This document shows, piece by piece, positions 4,073-63,769 of a stretch of DNA of 64,000 nucleotides. This DNA is from a virus. Taxonomy: Duplodnaviria > Caudoviricetes. The notes under the pieces were generated by a model. The model did not search any database. It saw nothing but the letters and a program-made list of their open reading frames with translations, and was not told where the DNA came from. Both the position numbers and the translations under genes were made by a program. The stretch covers positions 63,741-127,740 of IMG/VR virus record IMGVR_UViG_2907208306_000002; one strand, given 5' to 3'. The stretch's first letter is position 1, and every line of letters starts with the position of its first letter.

Positions 4073-4151
4073 GCGAGGTAATCTATCTGGTTGATAGAGG
4101 CGTTCTTATACAGCGTTATAGGGTTGGGTTCGATTCCCCCACCTCGTACCA
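4073..4151 (+). tRNA. tRNA-Ile(TAT) with irregular T arm
   Basis: Acceptor GCGAGGT/ACCTCGT, D stem TCTA/TAGA, anticodon loop CT-TAT-AC, TTCGATT loop, encoded CCA. Confidence 0.75.
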
Positions 4152-4152
4152 T

Positions 4153-4226
<74 letters not shown>

Positions 4227-4390
4227 TATTAAAATAACGTGCTCAGCACGATAACATATAGTTTCAGAAGCTTGATTCTGTAAAGGTGGTGATGTGAATC
4301 CAGAACCAGATGAGAAGTCCTCCCTTGTATAAAGTTCAGTCTCAGAATTAATATAAAACTAAAATACATATATAAGGGAGATATTAATTA

Positions 4391-21587: not shown

Positions 21588-21611
21588 TATTTTTTGGAGG
21601 AGATGAATAAC

Positions 21612-22856
21612 ATGGTAAAGAAACAGCGAACAGTTATGCTTATTGACATGCAGAGTTTCTATGCCAGCGTTGAGAAGGCAAAAGTACCTGAATATAAAAA
21701 TGAACCTTTGGTTGTTGCGGGAGATCCGTCAAGAAGATCTGGAATAATATTGGCTGCTTGTCCGATTGCAAAATCTTATGGGGTGGAAACGGGAGAAGTG
21801 CTGTGGCAAGCCTTACAGAAATGTCCAAATGCAATAGTGGTCAAACCACACATGCAGGAGTACATTGATGTTTCCTCTCAGATCACACAGATTGTGGAGA
21901 CATTTACTGACCTAGTGGAATGTTATTCAATTGATGAAATGTTTGCTGATGTTACTGGATCATTACATCTGTTTGGAAACAATCCAATTGAACTGGCAAA
22001 ACAAATTCAGCAGAAAATTTTAAATGAAACCGGCATTTACGCGAGGGCTGGAGTGGCAGAAAATAAGATTCTAAGTAAATTATGCTGTGACATGATCGCA
22101 AAGAAGATAGATGGTGGAATTTATTATCTGCACAAGGATGAATTACATAATTACATATGGAAGCAGCCTGTCCGTAAAATGTGGGGTATTGGCTCCAGGA
22201 TGGAGAAGCATCTTTATAAGATGGGCATTTTAACGATTGGCGATTTAGCGAATTACTCTCTGCCAAGACTTAGAAAAAAATGGGGAGTTAACGGTGAGGT
22301 TATATGGCGCGTAGCAAATGGTCTTGACGACTCTCCTGTAACTTTGACTACACATAACCGTCAGAGGGAAATTGGTAACGGAATGACCTTACCCCGAGAC
22401 TATTCACAAGCCTGGGAAATTGAAGTTGTATTACTGGACATTAGTACTGAAGTCTGTCGTAGGGCAAGACAAAAAGGATACAACGGATCTGTTGTTTCAG
22501 TGAGTATTTCTGGTGCTGACTTTGACATTAGAACAGGTTTTCACAGACAAAAGAAATTGACTGATCCAACCAATATCACTCAGGAAGTTTTCAATGCAGC
22601 CAAACAGATATTTCATCAACACTGGAATGGATTACCTATAAGAAGAGTAGGCGTTTCATTGTCTGATTTAAGCGATGCTAACACATATCAAATGTCTTTG
22701 TTTGACTACAATAAGGATCAATTAAGGGCAATAGATAAAGTTATGGATGACATTAAAGACCGTTTCGGTGAAGTATCAATCCTTAGAGCAAGCTCATTAA
22801 CCACAGCGGGTCAGGCAGTAGACAGAGCTGCTAAAATTGGAGGGCATTACAAATGA
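21612..22856 (+). CDS. uvrX: Y-family translesion DNA polymerase (UvrX/YqjW/UmuC-like)
   Basis: DMQSFYASVE, YSIDE, WGIG, Q(M)SLF clamp motif; SOS boxes. Confidence 0.92.
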   Translation: MVKKQRTVMLIDMQSFYASVEKAKVPEYKNEPLVVAGDPSRRSGIILAACPIAKSYGVETGEVLWQALQKCPNAIVVKPHMQEYIDVSSQITQIVETFTDLVECYSIDEMFADVTGSLHLFGNNPIELAKQIQQKILNETGIYARAGVAENKILSKLCCDMIAKKIDGGIYYLHKDELHNYIWKQPVRKMWGIGSRMEKHLYKMGILTIGDLANYSLPRLRKKWGVNGEVIWRVANGLDDSPVTLTTHNRQREIGNGMTLPRDYSQAWEIEVVLLDISTEVCRRARQKGYNGSVVSVSISGADFDIRTGFHRQKKLTDPTNITQEVFNAAKQIFHQHWNGLPIRRVGVSLSDLSDANTYQMSLFDYNKDQLRAIDKVMDDIKDRFGEVSILRASSLTTAGQAVDRAAKIGGHYK

Positions 22857-23188
22857 GTAAAAAGTTATCAGGAAATGGAATCTGGGAATCAAGCCGAATG
22901 ATGCTTCCACAGCACAGGGAACGTATTATAGATAATCAAAAAATACCTCTCCAAAAAACGAAACCAATCATCCATGCAGACGAGTGGGAAATCATAACTC
23001 AAAACATCAACCTGTCTCTAAGTGAACAGGAGCCTGTTGTCGTAACTATTTTTGGTGAGTATGAGAACTCAGAAGTTAGTGGGGTAATAAAGAATGTTAG
23101 TCCAATTCAAAAGAAACTTAAACTAGAAAATGATGAAGGTTTTGAATGGATCGATTTTAATGAAATTGTATCAGTAACACTCGAATGA
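22853..23188 (+). CDS. yolD: YolD-like protein
   Basis: WESSRMMLPQH N-terminus; coupled to the Y-family polymerase. Confidence 0.85.
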   Translation: MSKKLSGNGIWESSRMMLPQHRERIIDNQKIPLQKTKPIIHADEWEIITQNINLSLSEQEPVVVTIFGEYENSEVSGVIKNVSPIQKKLKLENDEGFEWIDFNEIVSVTLE

Positions 23189-23571
23189 TCATGAGACAAT
23201 CCGAAGGTGATTTAGAAATTGTTAAACGTTATTTAGAACTTCCTATTTTACTTGATGTCTTGGAGTATGATAAGAAGAGAATAGGAAGTTCTAAACTTAA
23301 TAATCAAAGTATCATGGTGTCATATTTAGAGTCAATTCAAGACAAAGTTACAACGGATATATATGAAGTTAAAAAGGAAATGAGAAAAAGATCAATCAAA
23401 ATTATCGAGCAAAGAAGGTTGGAGGATAGACTTGTTGCAGATTATTTGTGCAGGAATTATAAGCATCAAATTTCATTGCTCTGGAGTAAGGTGAAGTTTG
23501 ATTCTGAGGTTACATTAGCAAGATATATGGGAATTGATATTTATAAATTAGATAAACCGCCTATTCGTTAG
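23185..23571 (+). CDS. Hypothetical protein, third gene of the SOS operon
   Basis: ATGA overlap. Confidence 0.7.
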   Translation: MIMRQSEGDLEIVKRYLELPILLDVLEYDKKRIGSSKLNNQSIMVSYLESIQDKVTTDIYEVKKEMRKRSIKIIEQRRLEDRLVADYLCRNYKHQISLLWSKVKFDSEVTLARYMGIDIYKLDKPPIR

Positions 23572-25945
23572 ACGGTTTACTTTTTGTGTTTATGCGTTTT
23601 TCAACCTTACCAGGAAGAGCGGTAATAAACCTAGAATATCCTTGATCACACTTAACATAATTCATTGAATGATAACGCTTAAGATTCTTTAAGTCCTCAT
23701 CAGTAAAAGGGTAAAGTTCACTCTTTAATTCATCAAAGTTCTTCTTATCGCATCCAGCCAAGAGCATGTAGGAAGTGTTTGCACTACGCAGCTCATCACG
23801 CATATACTTCAATTGGTTAATGTAGTGGCAACTTATAATTGGTTTCATGATGAACTTGGCGATTTGAGATAGTTTAGAGGTTAGGAAACGTTCAGTGTTT
23901 TCGACTTGATACAACTCATCAACAATTAAATTAACCTTAGTCCTTTTGCTTTTGTCCCTTATTCGGTCAGCTCTAATCTGAAGTGCAAGCCAGATTTTAG
24001 TTATCCAATAAGTCGTACAGATGTCCTTTTCTGAATCAGTGGTAAACATTGATTGAGGCATTTTGATTACGATTAGTTGATTCTTTTGCATCTCAGCACT
24101 CAAATCAATGTTCTTGCTGGTATCCTTTTTGAGCATTAACTCCATGTATGTGTTTCGTTTGAGAATGTTTAGGCGGTCAATTATACCTGTAATTAAGTGT
24201 GTTTTGGTTCCAATAATCGTGCCTTCTTTATCGGTCTCATCCAGCTCACTTAAATTTTCGATATATTCCTCCAGGTTGTTGAGTTGATTTCTAGGCACCT
24301 TACTTAGAAATTTCATTCGTGCATTATGGTTTTGGAGTACATTAAAGACATCTTTGATACTTCCAGTATTAATAAATACAACAAGGCTGGCACTCTCTAG
24401 ATATCGTTCCATTTTGGGACTTAATGAACTGTCGCTTGCGTTTATCGAGTTGATTAGAGTGAGCATGTTGGCTGTCTGACGTTTAGCATTTTCATATTGT
24501 TTAAATACATCTTTGCTAACTCCTACTTCGTTAAAGCCCAGACCTTGCATTGTGTCGAAGTCATCGCAGCGGATCTCAAGTACTTTGTCTTTGGGGAATA
24601 GCTTTGAGACATTTTCGCTTAATTCACAATTCTCGATAAAATCGAAAATTATTACACATTCACCGGCCTCAATGGCATCAATTGAAAGGTTGGCGATTAG
24701 GTTTGATTTACCAGCTCTCGTTGGGCCTATGAGAAGCAGAAGGAGATTCCTAAATTCAATGTCATTACTTAAGAATGCTTTCTGCTTCTTGCCTTTATAA
24801 ATATTCTCACCAATACACATTGTACCTGAACAAAGATCCTCTGGAACCTCGGTTTCAAACGTCTCAACTTTCTCAATAAAGTTATACTGTTCTAAGATGT
24901 CTCTTCCCGCCAATGACAAGAAGTTCTGTGCTTCACCGTCCCCAACAAGTAATTTATCTGCTCGGATATTGTAATCAGTGTATTCAAAATCCTTCCTAAA
25001 AGGCTTATAAATCAGTTCATTGTCTTCACTTATCGTGTCAAAACTCTGAGCTAAACTTTTAACGGTATTTCTTTGCCTTAAAGCGTCAGAGCTGCTGCCC
25101 ATGACTACAATTTGGGTAGAGAGAATGGAGGCAACGCCTTTTTTCAATGTGCTATCGCTTATTCTGAGTTTTTCTGTACCAGAAAGGGCGTTTAATAGAC
25201 CTGATAAAAACCCACTTTCATCCGATTTTTTATCCGATAAACTGGATACAGATAGCGCATCAGATAAGGTATTTATCACGGAGTCAATGACGGAGATACC
25301 CCATTTAAGCAAGTATCTCCATCCAGTCTTATTGCGGTCAATAGGTTTCCCCGATTTAAGTTTCTCGATGGTTGCTTTATGTTTATACCTCCAACCATGC
25401 TGAGAAGTTGGAATGAAATTATAGAAGATGCCTAACTTATCGCCCTCCTTGAGCATCTCTACAACGTTTAAATTAGAATGGAGGAGATCATTGTTACGCC
25501 GGTCAATGGAAAGGCTCATACCGTCTTCGTTTTTATAGACAATTTGATACTTTGTGGGACTGTCATTAAAAGTGGGGAGGGTGTTTACTTCTTCGATTGT
25601 TAATTGAGTCCACACATCGCTTATCTTTTCTTTAATGTACATAAGTTGATGATGAGGAATGATGAAATAAAACTCGATTTTTTTATTCTCCATATAAATG
25701 AAGTAACTTACTTTGGAGTTGATTTGAATCGAGATTTTTGTTGGAAATACTATATCTTTACCAAGGATTTTTATCATCTTTTCTTCCTGTTTGCTAATGT
25801 TCTCGATAACATTTTTATATAGACCAGATATTGCTCGTGCGAGTTTATGAGTTGAATTGTTACGTATTGAATTATTGGGCTTTAGCTTAAGGAATACATA
25901 GTTAGGTCGAGCAACCTCGATTACATCGCGGAGTTTAAGAGCCAT
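23561..25945 (-). CDS. Large P-loop ATPase, FtsK/HerA/VirB4-VirD4 superfamily
   Basis: Walker A GPTRAGKS, Walker B LIVDE, 794 aa. Confidence 0.78.
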   Translation of the reverse strand: MALKLRDVIEVARPNYVFLKLKPNNSIRNNSTHKLARAISGLYKNVIENISKQEEKMIKILGKDIVFPTKISIQINSKVSYFIYMENKKIEFYFIIPHHQLMYIKEKISDVWTQLTIEEVNTLPTFNDSPTKYQIVYKNEDGMSLSIDRRNNDLLHSNLNVVEMLKEGDKLGIFYNFIPTSQHGWRYKHKATIEKLKSGKPIDRNKTGWRYLLKWGISVIDSVINTLSDALSVSSLSDKKSDESGFLSGLLNALSGTEKLRISDSTLKKGVASILSTQIVVMGSSSDALRQRNTVKSLAQSFDTISEDNELIYKPFRKDFEYTDYNIRADKLLVGDGEAQNFLSLAGRDILEQYNFIEKVETFETEVPEDLCSGTMCIGENIYKGKKQKAFLSNDIEFRNLLLLLIGPTRAGKSNLIANLSIDAIEAGECVIIFDFIENCELSENVSKLFPKDKVLEIRCDDFDTMQGLGFNEVGVSKDVFKQYENAKRQTANMLTLINSINASDSSLSPKMERYLESASLVVFINTGSIKDVFNVLQNHNARMKFLSKVPRNQLNNLEEYIENLSELDETDKEGTIIGTKTHLITGIIDRLNILKRNTYMELMLKKDTSKNIDLSAEMQKNQLIVIKMPQSMFTTDSEKDICTTYWITKIWLALQIRADRIRDKSKRTKVNLIVDELYQVENTERFLTSKLSQIAKFIMKPIISCHYINQLKYMRDELRSANTSYMLLAGCDKKNFDELKSELYPFTDEDLKNLKRYHSMNYVKCDQGYSRFITALPGKVEKRINTKSKPSNE

Positions 25946-26243
25946 GAATCATCCCTCCCATAAGAAGGAATTTAATTAGAACGTTCGCCAGGTAAAGAAT
26001 CCCAGCCCATTTTTTCCCTTTATTCCATCCAACAACCCAAAACAAGATACATAATCCGCAGCCAACTAAGGCAACCGAATAGCTGAAATCTATGAATACG
26101 TTTCTGATAGAGTCTAAGACTCCAAGCAATATATCGGTTGTTTGTTCTTGTGCCCAGTGTCTGATTCCGTGTGTCAGTGGATTACCTTCTGACGGAACCT
26201 GAGGGAAAGGTATATTGTTGATTTTAACAAGCATAGATGTCAC
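25935..26243 (-). CDS. Small membrane protein
   Basis: Two hydrophobic segments; overlaps ATPase start. Confidence 0.7.
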   Translation of the reverse strand: MTSMLVKINNIPFPQVPSEGNPLTHGIRHWAQEQTTDILLGVLDSIRNVFIDFSYSVALVGCGLCILFWVVGWNKGKKWAGILYLANVLIKFLLMGGMIHGS

Positions 26244-26248
26244 ATCCC

Positions 26249-26650
26249 TTAGATGTCTTTGAATACTGAATCAATCTGATCTAAGCTCCAAGGAAGGGCG
26301 AGAAGTATTACGTAAACGATAAGGTATTGAAGGAAAGACTTTTTAGCGTAGTCAAAATCACCTTTTATAGTGTGTTGAATGGTATCCCATCCTCCTTTGA
26401 TAATTACGACCCATTTACCAAGGTTAACTAGTTTGCGATATATTCTTAGCCCACCTGCATCAATTCCTGTTCCAGCAGCGTAAAGAGTGGGATCTAAAAT
26501 ACCAGATGCGAAAATAATAATCGTGACTCCAATAATTCGATATGCTATTTTATGGCGTTTTAAGTGTGAGATAATAGTATCTTTTATTTTTGAGACATTG
26601 TAATCCTTGTTGATAAACTGGCTAAACGATATAGTTTCAACTCTAGTCAT
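26249..26650 (-). CDS. Membrane protein, TrbC/VirB2 pilin-like
   Basis: RBS AGGAG + ATG26650; leader-like hydrophobic stretch then two helices with GD...AKK loop. Confidence 0.55.
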   Translation of the reverse strand: MTRVETISFSQFINKDYNVSKIKDTIISHLKRHKIAYRIIGVTIIIFASGILDPTLYAAGTGIDAGGLRIYRKLVNLGKWVVIIKGGWDTIQHTIKGDFDYAKKSFLQYLIVYVILLALPWSLDQIDSVFKDI

Positions 26651-26816
26651 GATGCACCAACTCCTAAAATTTTTATAAAGACAAATACGAACAGGCATAA
26701 ATGAGAGAATGCTAACATAAAATTAGAAGCAAAGCGTTTCTAATTTACATAGGCATAGTCTACCCTACGGAAAAGAGGGGAAGGGACATCTTATGACAAC
26801 CCTTCCTGGGTCATAA

Positions 26817-26984
26817 TCAGCCTGCCAATTCATTAGTAGAAGCAATCTCTTTAATCTCTTCATAAAACGAATCTTCAAGGCTCATAAGTCCGACAAACAC
26901 GCTCCAACCTTCCTCCGTTAACAAGATAGATACTCCACGTTTTTGCAGATCAACCAAAGCATTTAACATATCATTTTTAAACAT
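26817..26984 (-). CDS. Small hypothetical protein, 55 aa (absent from track)
   Basis: RBS GAGGAG; MFKNDMLNALVDLQKRGVSILL... Confidence 0.6.
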   Translation of the reverse strand: MFKNDMLNALVDLQKRGVSILLTEEGWSVFVGLMSLEDSFYEEIKEIASTNELAG

Positions 26985-26999
26985 TATAACCATCTCCTC

Positions 27000-28079
27000 T
27001 TAATGTTTATATTTACTTAAAATGTCCAGCACAGATTTTCTTTCTGTGCTTTTTTGTTGTGGAACAAGTGTTGACACATTTGCCTGAAACCGTGAATTAT
27101 GAATAGGTTCAACTTGCTCTTTACATATACTTATGGATTTTTCAATATCATGTAGGCGTTTAAGAGACCAGGGAAGACCGGTAATGATTGAGATGATTTT
27201 CCCGTTGTGTTCATGATAATTACCTTCAAACAACTCATATGGCATTTGCTTAAAGATTAGATCATGTCGGACATACTCAAGTAACGATTCTTGGCCATCA
27301 AAGATAAGCGCAGCCTTTGAGATACGATCTGATTCAATTGGTGCGAATATTGATTGTGACCAAGATGTTCTCACTTTTTCAGCTACGCTTTCAGAAGACA
27401 GGGTGAGTCCCTGATTCAGATTGGTGATGTTAGTCTCACTAATTAGGGCAATACCAGGATTGTTAAGGATTGTTATAAGATCTTCTTTATCAAAGTTGCC
27501 GTTCTTGGAGTGCTTTTCCGTATAAGAATAGATGGTGTTCAGCATCGATACCGCAGATTTGTTAGTCATATCCAGTAATAAATTTTTACCTATATTAGGG
27601 TAGTTATTTCTTGTTTGCTGGTTATCGATGGGGAATACGGCTACATTTAATTGAGACAACTCTTCAAATGCTTTTAATGTATTCACCTGAGCCGAGTATG
27701 ACTCAGATGTTTCAGGAATAATTGGCATCGCTATGAATGTGGTATCTGGCAATGTATTAATGGTAACTTCGAGAAGAATTGGGCCGATCCCACTACCAGA
27801 ACCACCGGCTAAAGAGAAGGTAAATACGATGACTTTAGCATTCGCAAAATTGTCTTTAATGAAGTTTAAAGCATCTTCCCACTGATCCTGAAAAAGCTGT
27901 ATTGCTTCGTTTCTCTTCTTACCAACCCCTTCTGAACCAAGCAAGCGTAATTTGTGTCTGACTGTAACTGAGTCTAAGTCCTTTTGTGAGTAGTTTATAG
28001 CTCCCGAGAGGTAGCCCTGTTTGTGGGCTTCTTCAGCAATATTTGAACCCGCCTGACCCAAACCAATCACAGCAAACAT
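27000..28079 (-). CDS. Tubulin/FtsZ-family GTPase (TubZ-like)
   Basis: IGLGQAGSNIA, GVGKKR, AGGSGSG, IDN, NFDKED. Confidence 0.88.
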   Translation of the reverse strand: MFAVIGLGQAGSNIAEEAHKQGYLSGAINYSQKDLDSVTVRHKLRLLGSEGVGKKRNEAIQLFQDQWEDALNFIKDNFANAKVIVFTFSLAGGSGSGIGPILLEVTINTLPDTTFIAMPIIPETSESYSAQVNTLKAFEELSQLNVAVFPIDNQQTRNNYPNIGKNLLLDMTNKSAVSMLNTIYSYTEKHSKNGNFDKEDLITILNNPGIALISETNITNLNQGLTLSSESVAEKVRTSWSQSIFAPIESDRISKAALIFDGQESLLEYVRHDLIFKQMPYELFEGNYHEHNGKIISIITGLPWSLKRLHDIEKSISICKEQVEPIHNSRFQANVSTLVPQQKSTERKSVLDILSKYKH

Positions 28080-28363
28080 TAAGCACCAGCCCTCTCTAAT
28101 GATTTAGTTACAGCAGCTACTCCATACTCTGTTAGGTACAACAGATTTTGTTTCTTTACATTTATTGTTTCGATTAATTTATTAGCGCACAAACGATTAA
28201 TGGTTCTACGATATGTTGCTTCAGTAAATGAAACTGTTTTTTGAAGTTCGGAATTGCTAACTGCTTTAAAGCCCGTTGTTGCCTCGGCTTCATGGAGTGC
28301 CCCAAGAACATAAACGTCATCGATAGTTAGGCTACTTAGAACGTACTCGAAATATCTTTCCAT
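28079..28363 (-). CDS. Winged-helix DNA-binding protein (TubR-like)
   Basis: RBS GGAGGTG + ATG28363; TEATYRRTINRL...LYLTEYG; TAATG-coupled to tubZ-like gene. Confidence 0.7.
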   Translation of the reverse strand: MERYFEYVLSSLTIDDVYVLGALHEAEATTGFKAVSNSELQKTVSFTEATYRRTINRLCANKLIETINVKKQNLLYLTEYGVAAVTKSLERAGA

Positions 28364-28448
28364 ATGACTAACACCTCCCCAATGATGTTCAAGCATCTTG
28401 CACTGTCTTAGATGAGTTTGAAAGACGTTGTTTGATGTTTGATGATAT

Positions 28449-28478
28449 AGCATATTGCGACAGGCTTGACCAATATAA
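28449..28478 (-). promoter_or_regulatory. SigE-like sporulation promoter for the tubR-tubZ operon
   Basis: Minus strand TTATATT-N15-AATATGCT. Confidence 0.35.
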
Positions 28479-28499
28479 CCCAGAAAATTGAAAATTCGT

Positions 28500-28529
28500 G
28501 TATTTATTTTCGAAGATTTGTCCATCCTA
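28500..28529 (+). promoter_or_regulatory. SigG-like forespore promoter
   Basis: GTATT-N18-CATCCTA versus GNATR-N18-CATNNTA. Confidence 0.5.
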
Positions 28530-28550
28530 GTCATTAAAGGGGTGGATATA

Positions 28551-28772
28551 GTGGGAGCTTTTGAATTTAAGAAGAGGACTAAATTTGGTAAGTGGATAGA
28601 TCAGAACCGAATTAGCCAGGAGTGGCTAATTAAGAATATAGGATTAAACAGAAAGACAGTTTACTCGATATGTAATGACACAGAACACAACCCTCAAGAG
28701 GTGACGCAGCTTAAGATTGTAAGTAAGCTGAGAAGAGAAGGATACGATGTTTCGGTAAGTGATTTTTGGTAA
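28551..28772 (+). CDS. Small XRE/Cro-like HTH protein
   Basis: RBS AAAGGGGTG + GTG; ISQEWL...GLNRKTVYSIC; ends DFW. Confidence 0.75.
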   Translation: MGAFEFKKRTKFGKWIDQNRISQEWLIKNIGLNRKTVYSICNDTEHNPQEVTQLKIVSKLRREGYDVSVSDFW

Positions 28773-28774
28773 AC

Positions 28775-28812
28775 AAAAAAACCGACTTCCTATTATAGAG
28801 GTCGGTTTTTTT
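28775..28812. terminator. Bidirectional intrinsic terminator
   Basis: A7-CCGACTTC...GAGGTCGG-T7. Confidence 0.8.
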
Positions 28813-45668: not shown

Positions 45669-46022
45669 TTGCTGATTGTTTACGATTCAATGACTGGCAA
45701 TGTGGATCGTTTTGTGAAGAAACTCGGTTTGAGGAATAAAAAGATTGAACCTAGACTAGTAGTTGAGGAACCATTTCTCTTAATAACCTATTCTATCGGG
45801 TTTGGAGAAGTTCCCAAGAAGGTGAATGGCTTCTTAACTGCTAATAGCCATAATCTACGTGGGGTAATAGGTAGCGGTAACAAGATTTGGGGAGCCAACT
45901 ATTGTGGAGCAGCAGAAAAAATTGCTAAAGAGTTCAACGTTCCGTTGGTACATAAATTTGAACTATCGGGAACTGATAAAGATGTAGAGAAAGTACAACA
46001 GGAGGCCAAAAATATTGGATAG
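45669..46022 (+). CDS. nrdI: Class Ib RNR flavodoxin NrdI
   Basis: YDSMTGNVDRFV, GSGNKIWG, KFELSGT. Confidence 0.95.
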   Translation: MLIVYDSMTGNVDRFVKKLGLRNKKIEPRLVVEEPFLLITYSIGFGEVPKKVNGFLTANSHNLRGVIGSGNKIWGANYCGAAEKIAKEFNVPLVHKFELSGTDKDVEKVQQEAKNIG

Positions 46023-49000
46023 CGTTCCAAAGTATATCAAACTTAATAATGAGATTATGATCCAAGATGACGGTAAGTTTCAATTTGAGAAGGACAGAGA
46101 TGCAGTTAAAAGTTACTTTATTGATTATATAAACCAAAACACCGTCTTCTTCCATGATTTAAAAGAGAAATTGGATTACTTGATTGAAAATGACTACTAT
46201 GAAGAAGAATTTCTAAGCAAGTATACATATGAACAGATTAAAGACATTTACAATATCGCCTATGCTAAGAAGTTTAGATTCCCTTCCTTTATGAGTGCTT
46301 TCAAATTTTATAATGATTATGCGCTAAAAACAAACGACAAGAGAAAGATTCTTGAACGTTATGAAGATCGAATTGCTATTGTTGCACTTTACCTGGGCGA
46401 TGGTGATTATGATAAAGCTAAGAAACTGGTTAACGCGCTAATCAATCAAGAGCTTCAACCATCTACTCCAACATTCCTTAATGCTGGTCGCAAACGCAGA
46501 GGAGAACTGGTAAGCTGCTTTCTAATGGAGGTTAACGACTCCTTAAATGACATTTCTAAAGCAGTAGATATGTCAATGCAACTGTCGAAAGTAGGCGGCG
46601 GTGTTTCATTAAATCTCTCTAAGATTAGAGCAAAAGGGGAAGCCATTAAAGGCATCGAGAATGCAACAAAAGGTGTTGTCGGTGTTATGAAGTTGCTTGA
46701 TCACTCTTTTCGATATGCCGATCAAATGGGACAAAGACAAGGGTCAGGAGCGGCATACTTAAATGTATTTCATGCAGATATTAATGATTTCTTAGACACC
46801 AAAAAGATCAGTGCAGACGAAGATGTTCGAGTCAAAACACTCTCAATTGGTGTTGTAATCCCCGATAAATTCATTGAACTTGCTAAAGAGGATAAGGATG
46901 CTTATGTGTTCTATCCGTATACAGTTTATAAAGAATACGGAACGCATCTTGATGATATGGATTTTAATTCAATGTATGATGAGTTGGCAGAAAATCCAAA
47001 TGTCCGGAAAGATAAAGTGAACCCAAGAAAATTGCTTGAAAAGATGGCCATTTTGCGATTTGAGTCTGGTTATCCATACATCATGTTTGAGGATAATGTT
47101 AATGCTGAACACACATTACAGGAAATTGGCAAAGTTAAATTTAGTAATCTGTGTGTTACGGGCGACACAAAACTTCTTACGGCAGACGGATACCGTACAG
47201 CCAAAGAACTTTATAGTGAACAAGAGAACCTTAGAGTAGTGATTGATAATAGAACAAAAGAGTTAGATGCTAACAACAGAGGGACGTCTATTGTAAATGC
47301 TATACCGATGCAATTAACAGCAAAACAAGCTGATGTTTATAAATTGTCTACACAACAAGGCTACGAAATCAATGCAACAGGCTGGCATAAGATGTATGTT
47401 TCCAGGGATAACAAAGTTATCAAAATTCCAATGAATGAGGTTGCTATCGGAGATAAGGTTCTTGTGCAATCAGGAGAAGGTTCTTTTGGTAAAATTCATG
47501 CTCCAGAACTTGCTTACATCGCTGGTCTCATCGCAGGGGATGGATGTATTGATGATACAACGGCAATCATCTATCTGTATGGCAATAAATCTTCAATTAG
47601 AGATCGAGTCGAAAAAAATGTATCTTATATAATTGATCAATACTTGGATAAAAATTTTATATATAAACACAGCGCAAATTTTCATCCAACATTTAACGAA
47701 TCGTCTGATGGATCACGTATTGTATTAACTAGCCAGTTACTTAAAAAAGTGTTAGGTATGTTTTTTATTAATAAAGATACAAAAACTGTAATTCCAGAAA
47801 TTGTGTTTGCCGGAGACAAGGCGACTCAAGCTGCATACCTATCAGGGCTGTATCAAATGGATGGAACAGTGAACTGCAATGAAAGATATAAGGCAGGATC
47901 AATTGAACTAACATCTACAAATAAACAAAGTCTCAAAGAAATTCAGATGATGTTGTTGAATATGGGTGTTTATAGCACCGTTTATAGTTACAACAATGAA
48001 GGTTTGCGATCAATGCCAGATGGGAAAGGTGGATATAAGGATTACTACTGCAAAGAAACGCATAAGATTACTATCCAAGACAGGAACTCTAGGGAACTTT
48101 TTAACTCAATTATAGAGCTCAAAGATACAGATAGAACTAAACTTGCGGATTTCACTAAGACACTAAAACCTAAATCGAGAAATCCGAAGCACAACTATAC
48201 TGCGACTGTCTCTAACATTGAATACATAGGTAAAGAAGATGTATATGACACCACCCAAGAAGACTATCACTCTCTCATCTTTAATGGAATTGTTACAGGA
48301 AACTGTTCTGAAATTCTTCAGTATTCAGATGTTTCATCTTACACAGATTATACCCATGAAGATGAGCTCGGCATGGATATTTCCTGCAACTTAGCCTCTA
48401 TTAATATTGTTAATGTGATGGAGAATAAATCTATCAAAGATACTGTGAAGGTAAGCGTTGATGCTCTGACTACAGTTTCTGAAAAAACCAGTATTGAAAA
48501 TGCTCCTGGAGTACAAAAAGGGAACAATCTAATGAGGTCAATTGGATTAGGGGCAATGAACCTACATGGTTTCCTTGCAAAGAATAAAATCATGTATGAG
48601 AGCGAACAGGCAAGAGATTTCGCAAACACGTTTTTCATGATGGTTAATTATTATTCCATTGAGCGTTCTATGGAAATCGCAAGAGATACCGGCATTAAAT
48701 ACTACGGCTTTGAAAAATCAACTTATGCTTCTGGTGAGTACTTTAACAAGTACACTAACCAAGATTTCAATCCTAACAATGACAAGGTTAAGGCGCTCTT
48801 TGAAGGGATCTATATTCCAACCGTTGAAGATTGGAAAGTGTTAAAAGAGATGGTCATGAAGCATGGTCTTACTAACTCTTACAGACTTGCAATTGCACCA
48901 ACTGGTTCAATTTCATATGTGCAGTCTTCAACAGCTTCTGTCATGCCAATCATGGAGAGAATCGAAGAAAGAACTTATGGTAATTCAAAAACATATTATC

Positions 49001-49263
49001 CAATGCCTTACTTGTCGCCTGAAACATGGTTTTTCTACAAAGAAGCTTATGACATGGATATGTTTAGAGTAGTGGACATGATTTCAACGATTCAACAACA
49101 TATTGATCAGGGCATCAGCTTTACATTGTTTATGAAAGACACTCATACAACTAGAGATTTAAATAGAATCGATTTGTATGCTCATCACAAGGGAATCAAA
49201 ACGCTCTATTATGCCCGAACAAAAGATACATCTAGAGAAGTATGCTTGTCATGCTCAGTTTAA
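46015..49263 (+). CDS. nrdE: Class Ib ribonucleotide reductase alpha subunit with intein
   Basis: [18 protein letters not shown]|CSE, APTGSIS, C-terminal CLSC. Confidence 0.96.
47152..48303 (+). mobile_element. Intein (384 aa) with LAGLIDADG homing endonuclease
   Basis: CVTGDT...IVTGN|C inserted at FSNL/CSEI; [10 protein letters not shown] and [10 protein letters not shown]. Confidence 0.93.
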
Positions 49264-59518: not shown

Positions 59519-60502
59519 TTGATAGTGAAGCTATGTGAGATTTGCGGTTCCGGTGAAAGAGTGAGCTTTGTTAAGAAATCTAGGAACGAAAAGTATTTAG
59601 GAATGAATATATGTCATAAACATCGTCAGCAAATTTATAGAAATGGCAAAATAACTGATAATATGCGTTCACGAAGAAATGATGAAAGGATCTGCGATAT
59701 TTGCAAAGACGGATTTGACGTAAGGCAATGTGGATTAAATGGGAACTATAATGGTTTTTTATTGTGTCGAAAGCATTATCACCAAGTAAGAGCGACTGGT
59801 AGCATAGTTGATGCAAATAAAAGCCACCGTGATAGAGATAGGATTTGCGAGGTGTGCAATAAGGAAGATGCTATTTATTGCAGCGAGTTAGATAAGATGC
59901 TTTGCAGAAGACACTATGATCAAGTTTGGAATTATGGAAAGATTTTCGAAAGGACTGTTTTCGATTCGAATGATATCGTTAAATATGATACATATGCAGA
60001 AGTGATTTTGTATAATTCTAAGCACATTGAAAAAGGAAGGGTAAAAATAGATTTAGAAGATGTGGAGCATCTTTCAAAATATAAATGGTATCTTGATACA
60101 TGGGGTTATGCTTCTACTGGCAATGGAAATGGAGGCACAAAGTCAGTGATGATGCAAAGGTTAATCATGGATGTAGAGAAAGGAGAGATTGTTGATCATA
60201 TAAATAGAGACACGCTAGATAATCGGAAAGAGAACTTGAGAATTGCCGATAAATCATTGAATGCTGTAAATGCAGGTTTGCGTACCAATAATACAAGTGG
60301 CGTTACGGGAGTATCTTTCAACAAACATGCAAACTGTTGGCGAATTTATATTAACTACCAGGGAAAGCGTATAGAGTTAGGTTATAAAAAGGACTATTGC
60401 GATGCAGTTGTAGCGAGATTATTAGCTGAAAAGGAATACTATCCAGAACATCCACCACAAAAACATCTATTCGAAGAATATGGGGTATTATACGATGAGT
60501 GA
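59519..60502 (+). CDS. HNH-AP2 homing endonuclease with three N-terminal zinc-binding repeats
   Basis: VDHINRDTLDNRKENLR, NNTSGVTGV...W; three CxxC...CxxH repeats. Confidence 0.85.
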   Translation: MIVKLCEICGSGERVSFVKKSRNEKYLGMNICHKHRQQIYRNGKITDNMRSRRNDERICDICKDGFDVRQCGLNGNYNGFLLCRKHYHQVRATGSIVDANKSHRDRDRICEVCNKEDAIYCSELDKMLCRRHYDQVWNYGKIFERTVFDSNDIVKYDTYAEVILYNSKHIEKGRVKIDLEDVEHLSKYKWYLDTWGYASTGNGNGGTKSVMMQRLIMDVEKGEIVDHINRDTLDNRKENLRIADKSLNAVNAGLRTNNTSGVTGVSFNKHANCWRIYINYQGKRIELGYKKDYCDAVVARLLAEKEYYPEHPPQKHLFEEYGVLYDE

Positions 60503-63500
60503 TAACTACGTCTTATACCATCTGCACTCCGATGCAAGTAATCCATCGAGTTCAATGTCTATGGACTCAATAACTAAATTTGAAGAATATATTAATGCCG
60601 CCGAAAAAAACGAGATGACTGCTATCTGCTTCTCGGAACATGGGAATATCTTCAACTGGGTTAACAAGAAGAAAACAGTTGAATCCAAAGGATTAAAATA
60701 CATACATGCGAACGAAGTTTATCTTACCGAACACAATGATAGAGAGCGTGGTTTAATAAGAGATAATTATCACTATATGCTTATTGCAAAAAATTGGGAT
60801 GGGGTCAAGGAGTTAAACAAACTAACATCCATTTCGAATGATAAGCTTGATGGTCATTATTACTATAATCCTCGCGTAACGTTTGAGGAACTATTCAATA
60901 CTTCAGATAACATAATTATGACCTCAGCCTGTCTTGCTTCGCCATTATGGAGAGCACTAAAAAATGATAATAAGCAGATGCTAAACATGTTTATGGATTT
61001 CTTTGTGAAAAATAAGCATCGTATGTTTTTTGAAATTCAGTATCACTCACACCCAGAACAAAAATTATTCAACCAACATCTATACGAACTATCTAAGGAG
61101 ACAGGTATTCCTTTGATTGCTGGCACTGACACTCATGCTTTGAATAGAGATCAGGCAGAGGCAAGAAAGATACTTATGAAGGCAAAGGGTGCTACGTATG
61201 GAGACGAAGATTCTTTTGATTTAACATTTAAAACTTATCCCGAACTAGTGAGAATGTTTGAAGAGCAAAGTGCAATCCCACGAAGCGCTTATCTGGAGGC
61301 TATTTACAACACCAATGTAATGGCGAATATGGTTGAAGAGTTCACTTTAGATAAGTCAGCTAAATATCCTAAGATTCACGAAGATTCAGAGAAGGTGTTT
61401 AAAGAAAAAATTAATATCGGTGTAAAAGAGCATGGAATTAATAAATTCCAAACTGAGAAGCGACAAGAGTATTTCAAGAGAATACGTGAAGAGTTTGATA
61501 CATATAAAGCCGTAGGTGCAATAGACTACATGCTGCTGCAGAAAGATGTTGTTGATTGGGCACATAGCAACGGAATATATCAAGGATATGGTAGGGGATC
61601 GGTAAACGGAAGTTTAATTGCGTACCTGTTGAAGATCACTGAAATGGACAGTATTAAGCACAAATTGAACTTCTTCAGATTCCTTAATCCAGAACGCATC
61701 TCTCTAGCTGATATTGATCTGGATTGGCCACCAAGTAAAAGACAGGATGTTATTGATTATGTAGCATCAATACCAGGGATTCATTTTTCTGAGATAATCA
61801 CATTTAACACTATCGCACTAAAAGGAGCCATTAGAGAAGTTGGGCGAGCTTTAGGTATGGAATTATCCTTAGTCGATGAGATAGCAAAATCCGTATTCAA
61901 AGATGAGAAAAAGAAGGATACCGTAGATCGTCGGTATAGAGAACAGTACCCAGAACTATTCAAATATGTGGATTTGGTACAGGGAGTAATAATGAGTATT
62001 GGTTCTCACCCATCTGGATATGTTGTATCGCCAATTAGCTTGGACGATAATATTGGGTTGTGCTTCACCAAGGAGAGTAAATATCCTGTTAGTCAAATCA
62101 ATATGAAAGAGCTAGATGGATTAAACTATGTAAAGCTTGATATCCTTGGACTTGATAACATCGAAATCATTAACGAAACGTGTAAACTAGCAGGAATTGA
62201 TAGATTGGTTCCAGACAACATGGACGTTAATGATGAGAATGTTTGGAACTCAATTAGAGAATCGGGCTTAGGGATATTTCAATGGGAAAGCGTTAGCGCT
62301 CAAGCCTACCTCAAAGACCTGTTGAGTCCTGAAACAATACATAAAATCAAACAGCAACACCCGAACTTTAGTTACATTGAGTTATTTTCAATTGGAAATG
62401 GTGCAATCCGACCATCAGGTGACTCATATAGACAGGCGTTGGCAAACGGAATATTTAAAGATCACGGTCACTCTGCACTAAATAAGTTCTTGGAAAATAC
62501 AATCGGATATCTCGTTTATCAAGAACAAATCATGAATTTCCTGGTTGAGTTCTGCGATTTCTCAATGGCTGAAAGCGATAGTGTAAGGCGGGGATTGTCA
62601 AAAAAAGAAGGCACTGAAAAGTTTTTGCCAGAGATTCGAAAAAGATTTATTAATAAAATGATAAAAGAATATCAAGAGACTGAAGAAGCTGCCATTTCAG
62701 TACTTGAACCATTTTTGCAAGTTATTGATGATGCCCAGCGCTATGGATTTTCTGATAACCATTCGAATCCTTATTCTCATATCGGTTACGGAAATGGATA
62801 CTTACGCTATTATTATCCGTTGGCCTTCTTAACGGTAATGCTGAATATAAATAAGGACGACATCGAGAAGACAGGTCAGATAATTGAATATGCAAAGACA
62901 AGAGGAATTGAAATATCGCCAATCAAGTTTGGTAAATCTGGATCATCTTATTCTTATAACGAAACTGATAATATGATTTACAAAGGATTAGAATCTATAA
63001 AGTTCCTTAATGCTAATATTGCAAACGAGCTGCTCCAATTAAGCAAAAATAAATATAGTGATTTCATGTCCTTGCTAGCCGATGTAACAGAAAAAACATC
63101 GGTAAATTCAAAACAGTTAAAGATTCTAATCAGACTCAACTTTTTTTCCGAGTTCGGTAATAGCAGTCTCCTTCTTAAACTACATGAAGAGTTCTCTGAA
63201 GGAAAGATAAAATACGGTAAAAACTTAAAGTCAAAACTGCAAAGGTTAGAGAGTTTGATTGAATATGAGCATAAGATCAGAAAAGAAGACTCTATTCCTG
63301 ATACATTGCCAAATGACGAAGTGATGTTTCACAAGGAGATGTTAGGTTATGCCGATATTAAATATCCTCATGTCTCTCCTGGATGGTGTGTTCTTACTGA
63401 ATTGGATACCAAGTATTCTCCCAAATTAACACTATACAACCTAAAAACCGGACAAGAACGAATATTTAAGATGGACAAGAAAACATTTAACGTAAAAGAT

Positions 63501-63671
63501 AATTCTTTGAAAATTAATAAGGGCGATTTGATTAGGATTGATAGCTTCATAAAGAAACAGAGGCAAGTACCTGACGGCAAGGGCGGTTTTAAACCAACTG
63601 ATCAAACAGATGTATGGATAACAGGTTACACAAAATACAGCGACAAGGAGACTTTAAATGGAATTAAGTAA
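60495..63671 (+). CDS. dnaE: DNA polymerase III alpha subunit (DnaE, YorL-like)
   Basis: PHP HLHS, GRGS, ADIDLD, GSHPSG, KLDILGL, VYQEQ. Confidence 0.95.
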   Translation: MSDNYVLYHLHSDASNPSSSMSMDSITKFEEYINAAEKNEMTAICFSEHGNIFNWVNKKKTVESKGLKYIHANEVYLTEHNDRERGLIRDNYHYMLIAKNWDGVKELNKLTSISNDKLDGHYYYNPRVTFEELFNTSDNIIMTSACLASPLWRALKNDNKQMLNMFMDFFVKNKHRMFFEIQYHSHPEQKLFNQHLYELSKETGIPLIAGTDTHALNRDQAEARKILMKAKGATYGDEDSFDLTFKTYPELVRMFEEQSAIPRSAYLEAIYNTNVMANMVEEFTLDKSAKYPKIHEDSEKVFKEKINIGVKEHGINKFQTEKRQEYFKRIREEFDTYKAVGAIDYMLLQKDVVDWAHSNGIYQGYGRGSVNGSLIAYLLKITEMDSIKHKLNFFRFLNPERISLADIDLDWPPSKRQDVIDYVASIPGIHFSEIITFNTIALKGAIREVGRALGMELSLVDEIAKSVFKDEKKKDTVDRRYREQYPELFKYVDLVQGVIMSIGSHPSGYVVSPISLDDNIGLCFTKESKYPVSQINMKELDGLNYVKLDILGLDNIEIINETCKLAGIDRLVPDNMDVNDENVWNSIRESGLGIFQWESVSAQAYLKDLLSPETIHKIKQQHPNFSYIELFSIGNGAIRPSGDSYRQALANGIFKDHGHSALNKFLENTIGYLVYQEQIMNFLVEFCDFSMAESDSVRRGLSKKEGTEKFLPEIRKRFINKMIKEYQETEEAAISVLEPFLQVIDDAQRYGFSDNHSNPYSHIGYGNGYLRYYYPLAFLTVMLNINKDDIEKTGQIIEYAKTRGIEISPIKFGKSGSSYSYNETDNMIYKGLESIKFLNANIANELLQLSKNKYSDFMSLLADVTEKTSVNSKQLKILIRLNFFSEFGNSSLLLKLHEEFSEGKIKYGKNLKSKLQRLESLIEYEHKIRKEDSIPDTLPNDEVMFHKEMLGYADIKYPHVSPGWCVLTELDTKYSPKLTLYNLKTGQERIFKMDKKTFNVKDNSLKINKGDLIRIDSFIKKQRQVPDGKGGFKPTDQTDVWITGYTKYSDKETLNGIK

Positions 63672-63769
63672 AAAGCAAATTGAAAAAATATTAGGAAAGA
63701 ATATCTCGGATTCAGATTATATTGAATATTTAATTTATACGTATCAGCAGCTCAAAAAGGACGAAGAAA

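Follow-up and report, generated by a model that had tools for sequence, protein, structure and literature searches.

Organization of the locus

The 64,000-nt stretch of DNA analysed here (the window; positions 63,741 to 127,740 of IMG/VR record IMGVR_UViG_2907208306_000002) lies within a prophage, at positions 531799-595798 of a contig of at least 596 kb in a 7.87-Mb genome that is 99.96% complete. Six co-oriented open reading frames (ORFs) occupy its minus strand at 23561-28363, while nearly all other window genes, and all of the genes flanking the six, are on the plus strand. They encode a TubR-type DNA-binding adaptor, a TubZ-like GTPase, a 58-aa soluble protein, a pilin-like membrane protein, a small protein with two transmembrane (TM) segments and a VirB4-type ATPase, and constitute an autonomous accessory operon in which a TubR/TubZ pair is joined to a minimal module of type IV secretion system (T4SS) origin (Table 1). 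The end of the 2-TM gene overlaps the start of the ATPase gene by 11 nt. The layout given in the original prediction, namely six co-oriented minus-strand genes and a divergent helix-turn-helix (HTH) gene closed by a terminator, was reproduced by ORF calls and a hairpin scan, with the correction that the ORF listed there with 55 amino acids has 58. For comparison, 110 related phage and prophage loci (given L numbers below) were taken from viral and genome collections, and their ORFs were called and clustered.

Table 1. Features of the operon and of the divergent regulatory gene (window coordinates)
Feature	Position	Strand	Basis or remark
Terminator-like hairpin at the operon end	23552-23580	-	12-bp stem overlapping the ATPase stop codon
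VirB4-type ATPase, 794 aa, phrog_5156, no TM segment	23561-25945	-	Profile match and fold comparison
Small 2-TM protein, 102 aa, VirB3 position, short form without M23 peptidase domain	25935-26243	-	TM segments 53-71 and 81-99
Pilin-like membrane protein, VirB2-like architecture, 133 aa when started at Met17 of a 149-aa ORF	26249-26650 (long ORF to 26698)	-	Architecture
58-aa soluble ORF	26817-26993	-	No family match
TubZ-like tubulin/FtsZ GTPase, 359 aa	27000-28079	-	Pfam Tubulin, PDB matches
TubR winged-helix DNA-binding adaptor, 94 aa	28079-28363	-	PDB 4asn; Met start as in relatives
Divergent control region, with conserved ~45-bp element (28426-28470) and 20-nt imperfect repeats (28383-28402, 28440-28459)	28364-28550	.	
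Divergent small HTH regulator, 73 aa, GTG start	28551-28772	+	Family represented close to the cassette in 68 loci
Bidirectional hairpin terminator at the end of the HTH gene	28775-28812	.	Arms of 15 nt, 93% complementary, with A and T runs on either side

The TubR/TubZ pair and its control region

The predicted TubR-like and TubZ-like genes were found to be genuine. TubZ scored 54.6 bits against Pfam Tubulin (cut-off 33), and its best solved relatives were the structures of Clostridium phage c-st TubZ (4xcq/3v3t, E-value 4e-15), with FtsZ behind at 4e-8; the motifs GLGQAGSN, AGGSGSG and NFDKED could be read directly in the protein. TubR matched the TubR of B. megaterium (PDB 4asn) over residues 1-90 with an E-value of 1.5e-16, the 94-aa form being taken from a longest ORF of 151 aa by use of the Met start found in relatives. 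On the basis of these sequence matches, the two genes are assigned as a type III DNA-positioning pair. As in the established TubZRC systems of this type (pBtoxis, B. megaterium pBM400 with TubR 4asn, and c-st with TubZ 4xcq), tubR precedes tubZ, the stop codon of the former overlaps the start codon of the latter (here at 28079), and both proteins are homologous. Those systems, however, serve low-copy plasmids and possess an iterated tubC, whereas the present locus is in an integrated prophage on a chromosome-size contig, with relatives on megabase-size contigs beside integrases; an iterated array was not found, and a T4SS-derived cassette follows the pair. No TubY-like gene was recognised here. 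The sole isolated phage with a TubZ of this type is phage G (gene 138, 27% identity).

Upstream of tubR, the element GTCAAGC.TGTCGCAATATGCTATATCATCA..CATCAAACAAC is conserved in three related loci (L007, L008 and L063) and may be an operator, a tubC-like site or a promoter. The divergent HTH gene begins with a GTG codon preceded by a AAGGGGTGG ribosome-binding site; the window copy of its product had no match in Pfam, and members of the family mostly lie in divergent orientation where they occur near the cassette. Inspection by eye of the region upstream of tubR revealed no convincing promoter of the sigma-E, F, G, K or H type, and a sigma-70 promoter scan returned sites no more numerous than in shuffled sequences. 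The 58-aa ORF is conserved solely in L007/L062 and L063.

The ATPase is VirB4-type in both domains

The ATPase matched phrog_5156, a family of unannotated function, with an E-value of 7.5e-91 over residues 6-787. Its Walker A motif is GPTRAGKS, and G412, K413 and the Walker B residues D676 and E677 were invariant in 36 homologs, from which an AlphaFold2 model of the full protein with a pLDDT of 86 was built. In that model, the C-terminal domain (365-785) was closest to the VirB4 of Thermoanaerobacter pseudethanolicus (4ag5; Z 27.2, root-mean-square deviation (rmsd) 3.5, 341 residues aligned), with DndH-C (Z 26.1), TrwB (25.5) and HerA (24.0) close behind. The N-terminal domain (11-354), folded alone with a pLDDT of 87.8 and compared with 48,161 chains with no pre-filtering, had residues 34-422 of the VirB4 protein TrwK (7o42_A) as its top match (Z 14.9, rmsd 3.5, 231 aligned), the next fold reaching Z 8.2; in a Foldseek search, the top eight hits were all TrwK. 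Judged from these modelled structures, the ATPase is of VirB4 type in both domains. No VirB4 model in Pfam or NCBIfam matched it, and the only sub-threshold hits were to TrwB_AAD_bind (18.7 bits, cut-off 20.5) and SXT_TraD (18.6 bits).

The earlier description of the protein as an FtsK/VirB4-like ATPase was therefore retained only as regards VirB4. An identity as an FtsK/SpoIIIE translocase was rejected, as the protein has no TM segment, its N-terminal domain is VirB4-like, and the FtsK motor matched only 218-223 residues of the C-terminal domain with Z 16-17, far below VirB4, TrwB and HerA. A match of residues 394-759 to PADLOC mad8 of the MADS defence system (E-value 8e-9) probably reflects, like the resemblance to DndH-C, the shared ATPase fold alone. 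The gene order virB2-virB3-virB4 is usual in T4SSs, and the present ATPase resembles the VirB4 proteins of R388 (TrwK) and T. pseudethanolicus not only in its two-domain fold without a TM segment but also in the position of its gene after a small 2-TM gene, which in turn follows a pilin-like gene. T4SS VirB4 proteins, however, are recognised by curated sequence models and have VirB6, VirB8, VirB10, VirB11, VirD4 and relaxase partners, whereas none of these applies here and the element is a phage.

The small membrane proteins and the M23 peptidase domain

The pilin-like protein begins with a basic region and a hydrophobic, presumably cleavable leader. An A-x-A-type site (LYAA/GTGID) separates these from the mature part, about 75 aa long, in which a basic loop joins two hydrophobic helices. 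In 82 distinct relatives the same build recurs, G-x-I-D coming after the A-x-A-type site; the 100 loci in which the family was found have it immediately before the 2-TM gene. It fits the architecture of VirB2/TrbC pilins, which have a long leader, a signal-peptidase site and a mature part of 70-80 aa with two helices and a basic loop. Neither the pilin-like nor the 2-TM family profile had a sequence match in PDB, and no named relative of either was found in a collection of 5.8 billion proteins. The VirB2 family PF04956 was matched by one of 27 members of the pilin-like family at noise level (E-value 0.083), and an Atlas hit labelled "TrbC/VirB2 family" (score 0.87) is a weak lead only. VirB3 is a small 2-TM protein whose gene directly precedes virB4 and which binds the N-terminal domain of VirB4. 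The position before the ATPase gene, the gene overlap and the two TM segments of the present protein would fit a VirB3, and no match to solved chains was obtained. The 2-TM protein probably serves to attach the ATPase to the membrane.

The 2-TM protein of the window is homologous to the C-terminal ~70 aa of M23-peptidase proteins of about 225 aa in its relatives. In 70 related loci, the TM hairpin forms the C-terminal part of such a protein, with an intact Peptidase_M23 domain (E-value ~1e-24) ahead of it in the N-terminal part. The short 2-TM form occurs alone in 19 loci, the window locus included, and some of these (L043-L046, L051 and L063) have a separate M23 gene in the operon. The M23 domain has thus been lost at the window locus, and the earlier statement that a hydrolase gene is absent holds for the window but not for most relatives, in which M23 is fused to the 2-TM protein. 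In L009 (6961-7623), L010 (7198-7878) and about 70 further loci, the M23 domain was located at the N-terminus, with no signal peptide, before the C-terminal TM hairpin, and the short connecting loop of the hairpin is basic (GW-K-G-x-R-W), suggesting an N-out orientation of the M23-TM protein.

Evidence against a conjugation system

Pfam scans of the whole 7.87-Mb genome gave no match to Relaxase (PF03432) or to T4SS-DNA_transf/VirD4 (PF02534), the controls being positive. Replic_Relax likewise had no match in the whole genome, although this is a weak negative, as its positive control was silent. No polytopic VirB6-like ORF was present in the module. The absence of a relaxase noted in the original prediction was thereby upheld and extended to the coupling protein. 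Homologous loci were not fragments of a full conjugative T4SS, the outcome that would have spoken against that prediction, but compact phage cassettes, in prophages beside lysis genes and integrases. These findings speak against conjugation.

A filament gene recurs in one slot upstream of the cassette

The constant core across the 110 related loci is made up of three proteins, namely the pilin-like protein, the 2-TM protein and the ATPase. The usual order was lysis genes, divergent HTH gene, actin-like ALP (Pfam ALP_N, phrog_691), small ribbon-helix-helix (RHH) protein, pilin-like protein, M23-TM protein, ATPase and integrase; as gene order recurs throughout the sample, the arrangement is not due to chance. 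In a subset of 95 loci with at least 4.5 kb of upstream sequence, the pilin-like gene was present in 84, the M23-TM form in 54 and the short form in 22. A filament gene stood within 4.5 kb upstream in 37 of the 95, this being ALP in 32 and TubZ in five, and was nearly always co-oriented and placed between the divergent HTH gene and the pilin-like gene. The ALP assignment was supported by ALP_N (E-value 1e-26), and the cluster includes SPO1 gp27.9, the phiCp-D "ParM" and the D6E "partition protein".

In a tree of the ATPases, ALP loci were found on the deepest branches (SPO1 gp27.9, D6E and Clostridia) and throughout. The five TubR/TubZ loci grouped in a single clade (support 93), itself part of an eight-row clade (support 97) whose other rows carry ALP. 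As the TubZ clade is nested among ALP-bearing sisters, a single replacement of ALP/RHH by TubR/TubZ took place in the same slot. In a Bacillaceae clade, ALP was lost and the RHH gene kept; more generally, cassettes that lack ALP, among them that of SPP1 (gp31), still have the small RHH protein. This slot pattern is the main evidence suggesting, from gene order and phylogeny, that filament, adaptor and VirB4 cassette act together. The pairing of a filament with a translocase that had been proposed for the locus thus gained comparative support, from ALP in the same slot of many relatives and the single TubRZ replacement, whereas the transport role attached to it was not supported.

Previously described relatives

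The cassette has already been noted in print; the M23 fusion and loss, the RHH gene without ALP and the single origin of TubRZ are points of the present analysis. In SPP1, gp31.1 and gp31.2 are membrane proteins and gp32 is an ATPase of 836 aa, for which HHpred indicated similarity to TrwB, VirB4 and FtsK (PMC6316719). The three were proposed to form a trans-membrane translocon, the role of which was left unassigned (Godinho et al. 2018, PMC6316719), and the cassette is transcribed from the early promoter PE5 during vegetative infection, with 31.2 and 32 being non-essential (PMC6316719). The ATPase of the window was homologous to gp32 over 672 residues, including the N-terminal domain (23% identity, E-value 2e-14), and gp31 grouped in the RHH family of the relatives; the small membrane proteins of the two phages were only weakly similar (hhalign probability 36% and 12%). 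SPP1 gp31/gp31.1/gp31.2/gp32 thus shares with the present locus the order of a small DNA-binding protein, a leader-bearing membrane protein, a 2-TM protein and an ATPase of about 800 aa with no TM segment. SPP1, however, is strictly lytic and has no filament gene, and TubR takes the place of its RHH protein here.

The "plasmid-like region" (gp11-gp18) of the Tyrovirus phages (Thrax1-5, Tsamsa and Kirov) brings together ParM, an RHH protein, a "type IV secretion system protein" and a replication-relaxation protein (PMC9703825). Of these large siphophages of Bacillus, the DNA polymerase III alpha is the closest relative of that of the window phage (55% identity), and their "type IV secretion system protein" was matched by tblastn with SPO1 gp27.4, a relative of the window ATPase. 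Their filament is actin-like and that of the window tubulin-like, and no counterpart was found here of the replication-relaxation gene that follows the ATPase gene in Tyrovirus. Phage systems of the ParMRC/Alp kind (B83, IEBH and AlpC/AlpA of CGP3) are similar in that a phage-encoded filament and a small DNA-binding adaptor position phage DNA, as is the case for the actin-like AlpC and its adaptor AlpA (PMC8026635). In the published accounts consulted, they are treated as partition or replication aids and are not tied to a VirB4-type cassette. In the literature searched, no paper assigned a function to the cassette or linked it to TubZ.

Host range

The original prediction had suggested examining whether the module is restricted to phages of spore-formers. 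With the window ATPase as the query, tblastn retrieved 58 phage records, and with SPO1 gp27.4 it retrieved 146. Their hosts were Bacillus, Geobacillus, Lysinibacillus, Brevibacillus, Alicyclobacillus, Clostridium and Terrisporobacter, so that the restriction held for all phage records but one, a Microcystis record from the SPO1 gp27.4 search. The searched phage collection also includes many Staphylococcus, Streptococcus, Lactococcus and Listeria phages, and none of these was matched by either query. The related genome loci were almost all from spore-former genera. Plasmid matches were mostly to non-mobilizable Clostridium plasmids of about 55 kb which, as they carry terminase and portal genes, are phage-plasmids. 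Two distant ATPase homologs from outside Bacillota, in metagenome-assembled genomes of Cetobacterium (L114, 30% identity) and Patescibacteria (L116, 20%), are possible exceptions to the spore-former pattern. The host range, as read from these records, fits a link to endospore formation but also shared ancestry. Transport into the forespore or between cells, for which the host range of the phage records was the sole basis, is not supported.

Proposed function and alternatives

The favoured reading, with a probability of roughly 45%, is that a filament pair and a minimal VirB4 module work from one accessory operon. The identities of the parts are held with high confidence; that filament and cassette belong to one pathway is an evenly balanced proposition, and it is unlikely that phage DNA is the cargo and is moved across a membrane. 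TubR would bind a site on phage DNA within the control region between tubR and the HTH gene, and the TubR-DNA complex would be carried by TubZ filaments to the membrane or cell pole. During lytic development, a hexamer of the VirB4-type ATPase with its two membrane partners would then anchor phage DNA or a DNA-protein complex, or pass it through the envelope, aided in most relatives by an M23 peptidase that would open the wall, while the divergent HTH protein would otherwise keep the operon off. A more specific version for phages of endospore-forming Bacillota, in which a minimal VirB4 translocon fed by a phage actin- or tubulin-like filament and its adaptor moves phage DNA across the septal or forespore membrane for capsid-independent transmission or persistence, is regarded as decidedly improbable.

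Several observations weigh against the favoured reading. Foremost among them, and the main evidence against an obligatory link, a filament gene was missing beside the cassette in 58 of the 95 loci and in SPP1; the filament is therefore optional, and its adjacency may reflect only a shared accessory slot. Near tubR, an iterated tubC-type centromere or iteron array was not found, two imperfect 20-nt repeats and the one conserved element being present instead. The operon encodes no VirB6- or VirB8-like channel protein, so that a complete envelope-spanning conduit is not evident, and tblastn located no M23 or other hydrolase domain anywhere in the 64-kb window. The VirB2-like and VirB3-like labels are putative, having been drawn only from architecture and gene order.

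The frequent absence of the filament would be expected if two unrelated modules shared one accessory slot, with the filament only positioning replicating phage DNA and the VirB4 cassette serving as a short pilus or adhesin, in protein secretion or in superinfection exclusion, and not acting on phage DNA. In keeping with such a division, VirB4 ATPases power the extraction of pilins and the assembly of pili in T4SSs, and in Bacillus phage G (JN638751.1) the TubZ-like gp138 (78710-79807) and the VirB4-type gp156 (91015-93138) are not adjacent but lie about 11 kb apart. The AlpC/AlpA system of CGP3 provides a precedent for a filament with a positioning role (PMC8026635). This division into two modules is nevertheless considered somewhat unlikely, as the order of HTH, filament, adaptor, pilin-like, 2-TM and ATPase genes is tight and co-oriented across distant hosts, TubRZ replaced ALP in exactly the same slot, and the DNA-binding RHH gene was kept when ALP was lost. 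It was also considered whether the operon might be a spore-entrapment device, in which the filament would push phage DNA to the pole and the VirB4 module would help it to reach or stay in the forespore, allowing the genome to survive in the spore. This would be consistent with the near-exclusive occurrence of the cassette in phage records (58 and 146) and genome loci of endospore-formers, and with its presence in the strictly lytic SPO1 and SPP1, for which plasmid partition would bring no gain. The host restriction may, however, be phylogenetic inertia, the SPP1 cassette is under an early vegetative promoter, no sporulation-sigma promoter was recognised upstream of tubR, and a prophage, being part of the chromosome, is carried into the spore in any case, making entrapment an improbable function.

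Capsid-independent, conjugation-like transfer of phage DNA to neighbours in a chain or biofilm was rated as very improbable, given that relaxase and coupling protein were not found in the genome, a VirB6/VirB8-like gene was not found at the locus, and the hydrolase is missing there. Such transfer would nonetheless agree with VirB4 being the signature ATPase of conjugative T4SSs, with the M23 wall hydrolase of the relatives, which has a counterpart in Gram-positive T4SSs, and with the "replication-relaxation" gene situated just downstream in SPO1-like and Tyrovirus relatives. The archaeal Ced system of DNA import also consists of small membrane proteins and a VirB4-like ATPase and has no relaxase. 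A role in anti-phage defence or exclusion, with a HerA/VirB4-like ATPase as its basis, was suggested by the mad8 match, by the resemblance of the C-terminal domain to DndH-C and to HerA of the SIR2-HerA and DUF4297-HerA complexes (Z ~20), and by the location of the cassette in a moron-type region of temperate phages. There is, however, no linked effector (nuclease or SIR2), the VirB4-specific N-terminal domain and the pilin-like partner indicate descent from a T4SS, and strictly lytic phages also carry the cassette, so that this explanation is extremely improbable; as the similarity to mad8 and HerA was confined to the shared ATPase domain, defence was rejected as the principal interpretation.

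VirB4, the motor that characterises conjugation and effector secretion, is found here in hundreds of Bacillus, Paenibacillus, Geobacillus and Clostridium phages without the remaining T4SS parts. The retention of VirB4 with a pilin-like and a small membrane protein, and often a filament, in the absence of the other T4SS parts points to an as yet unassayed phage function, which could bear on persistence in sporulating or chained hosts. The cassette is carried by the model phages SPP1 (gp31-gp32) and SPO1 (gp27.9-gp27.3) and is dispensable for plaque formation. Furthermore, the exchange of an actin-like for a tubulin-like filament at one slot constitutes a natural experiment on the interchangeability of cytomotive systems.

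Genomic context and additional observations

By appearance, the window holds the early/replication part of a large temperate phage, with UvrX-YolD, a class I ribonucleotide reductase with an intein, RecJ-like and primase-like proteins and DNA polymerase III alpha. Judged by this polymerase, the closest isolated phages, at about 55% identity, were the large Bacillus siphophages PJN02, FADO, Thrax and Kirov, and close homologs of the ATPase were mostly from Paenibacillus. The phage that carries the operon is read as a large temperate siphophage related to Tyrovirus, PJN02 and SPbeta-type phages, integrated in the chromosome of a Paenibacillus-like spore-former. No near-identical DNA was found in the phage and plasmid collections, and prevalence was 4 of 401 in genomes of the phylum.

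Converging on the ATPase gene at 21594-23571 is a cassette encoding UvrX (a Y-family polymerase), YolD and a 128-aa protein (phrog_34234); the same trio lies beside the module in L007/L062 and in L092, and the 128-aa family occurs near the module in 10 loci. Elsewhere in the window, the gene for the large subunit of ribonucleotide reductase (46015-49263) is split by an intein that carries a LAGLIDADG homing-endonuclease domain (Pfam Intein_splicing and LAGLIDADG_3), and a free-standing HNH endonuclease gene (59519-60502) stands directly upstream of the DNA polymerase III alpha gene (60480-63671) and overlaps its start. Two adjacent phage-borne tRNA genes, tRNA-Ile (anticodon TAT) and tRNA-Arg (CCT), were located at 4073-4227. 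In a subclade of Paenibacillus phages (L025, 5708-6865, and L030, L048, L053, L055, L058, L077 and L082), the ATPase gene is followed by a trio encoding a protein of about 210 aa, an AgrB-like protein (Pfam AgrB, E-value 7.5e-15; phrog_10353) and a protein of about 125 aa, and then by an HTH gene. From its gene content, this trio beside the VirB4 module looks like a phage-borne Agr-type peptide-signalling cassette.

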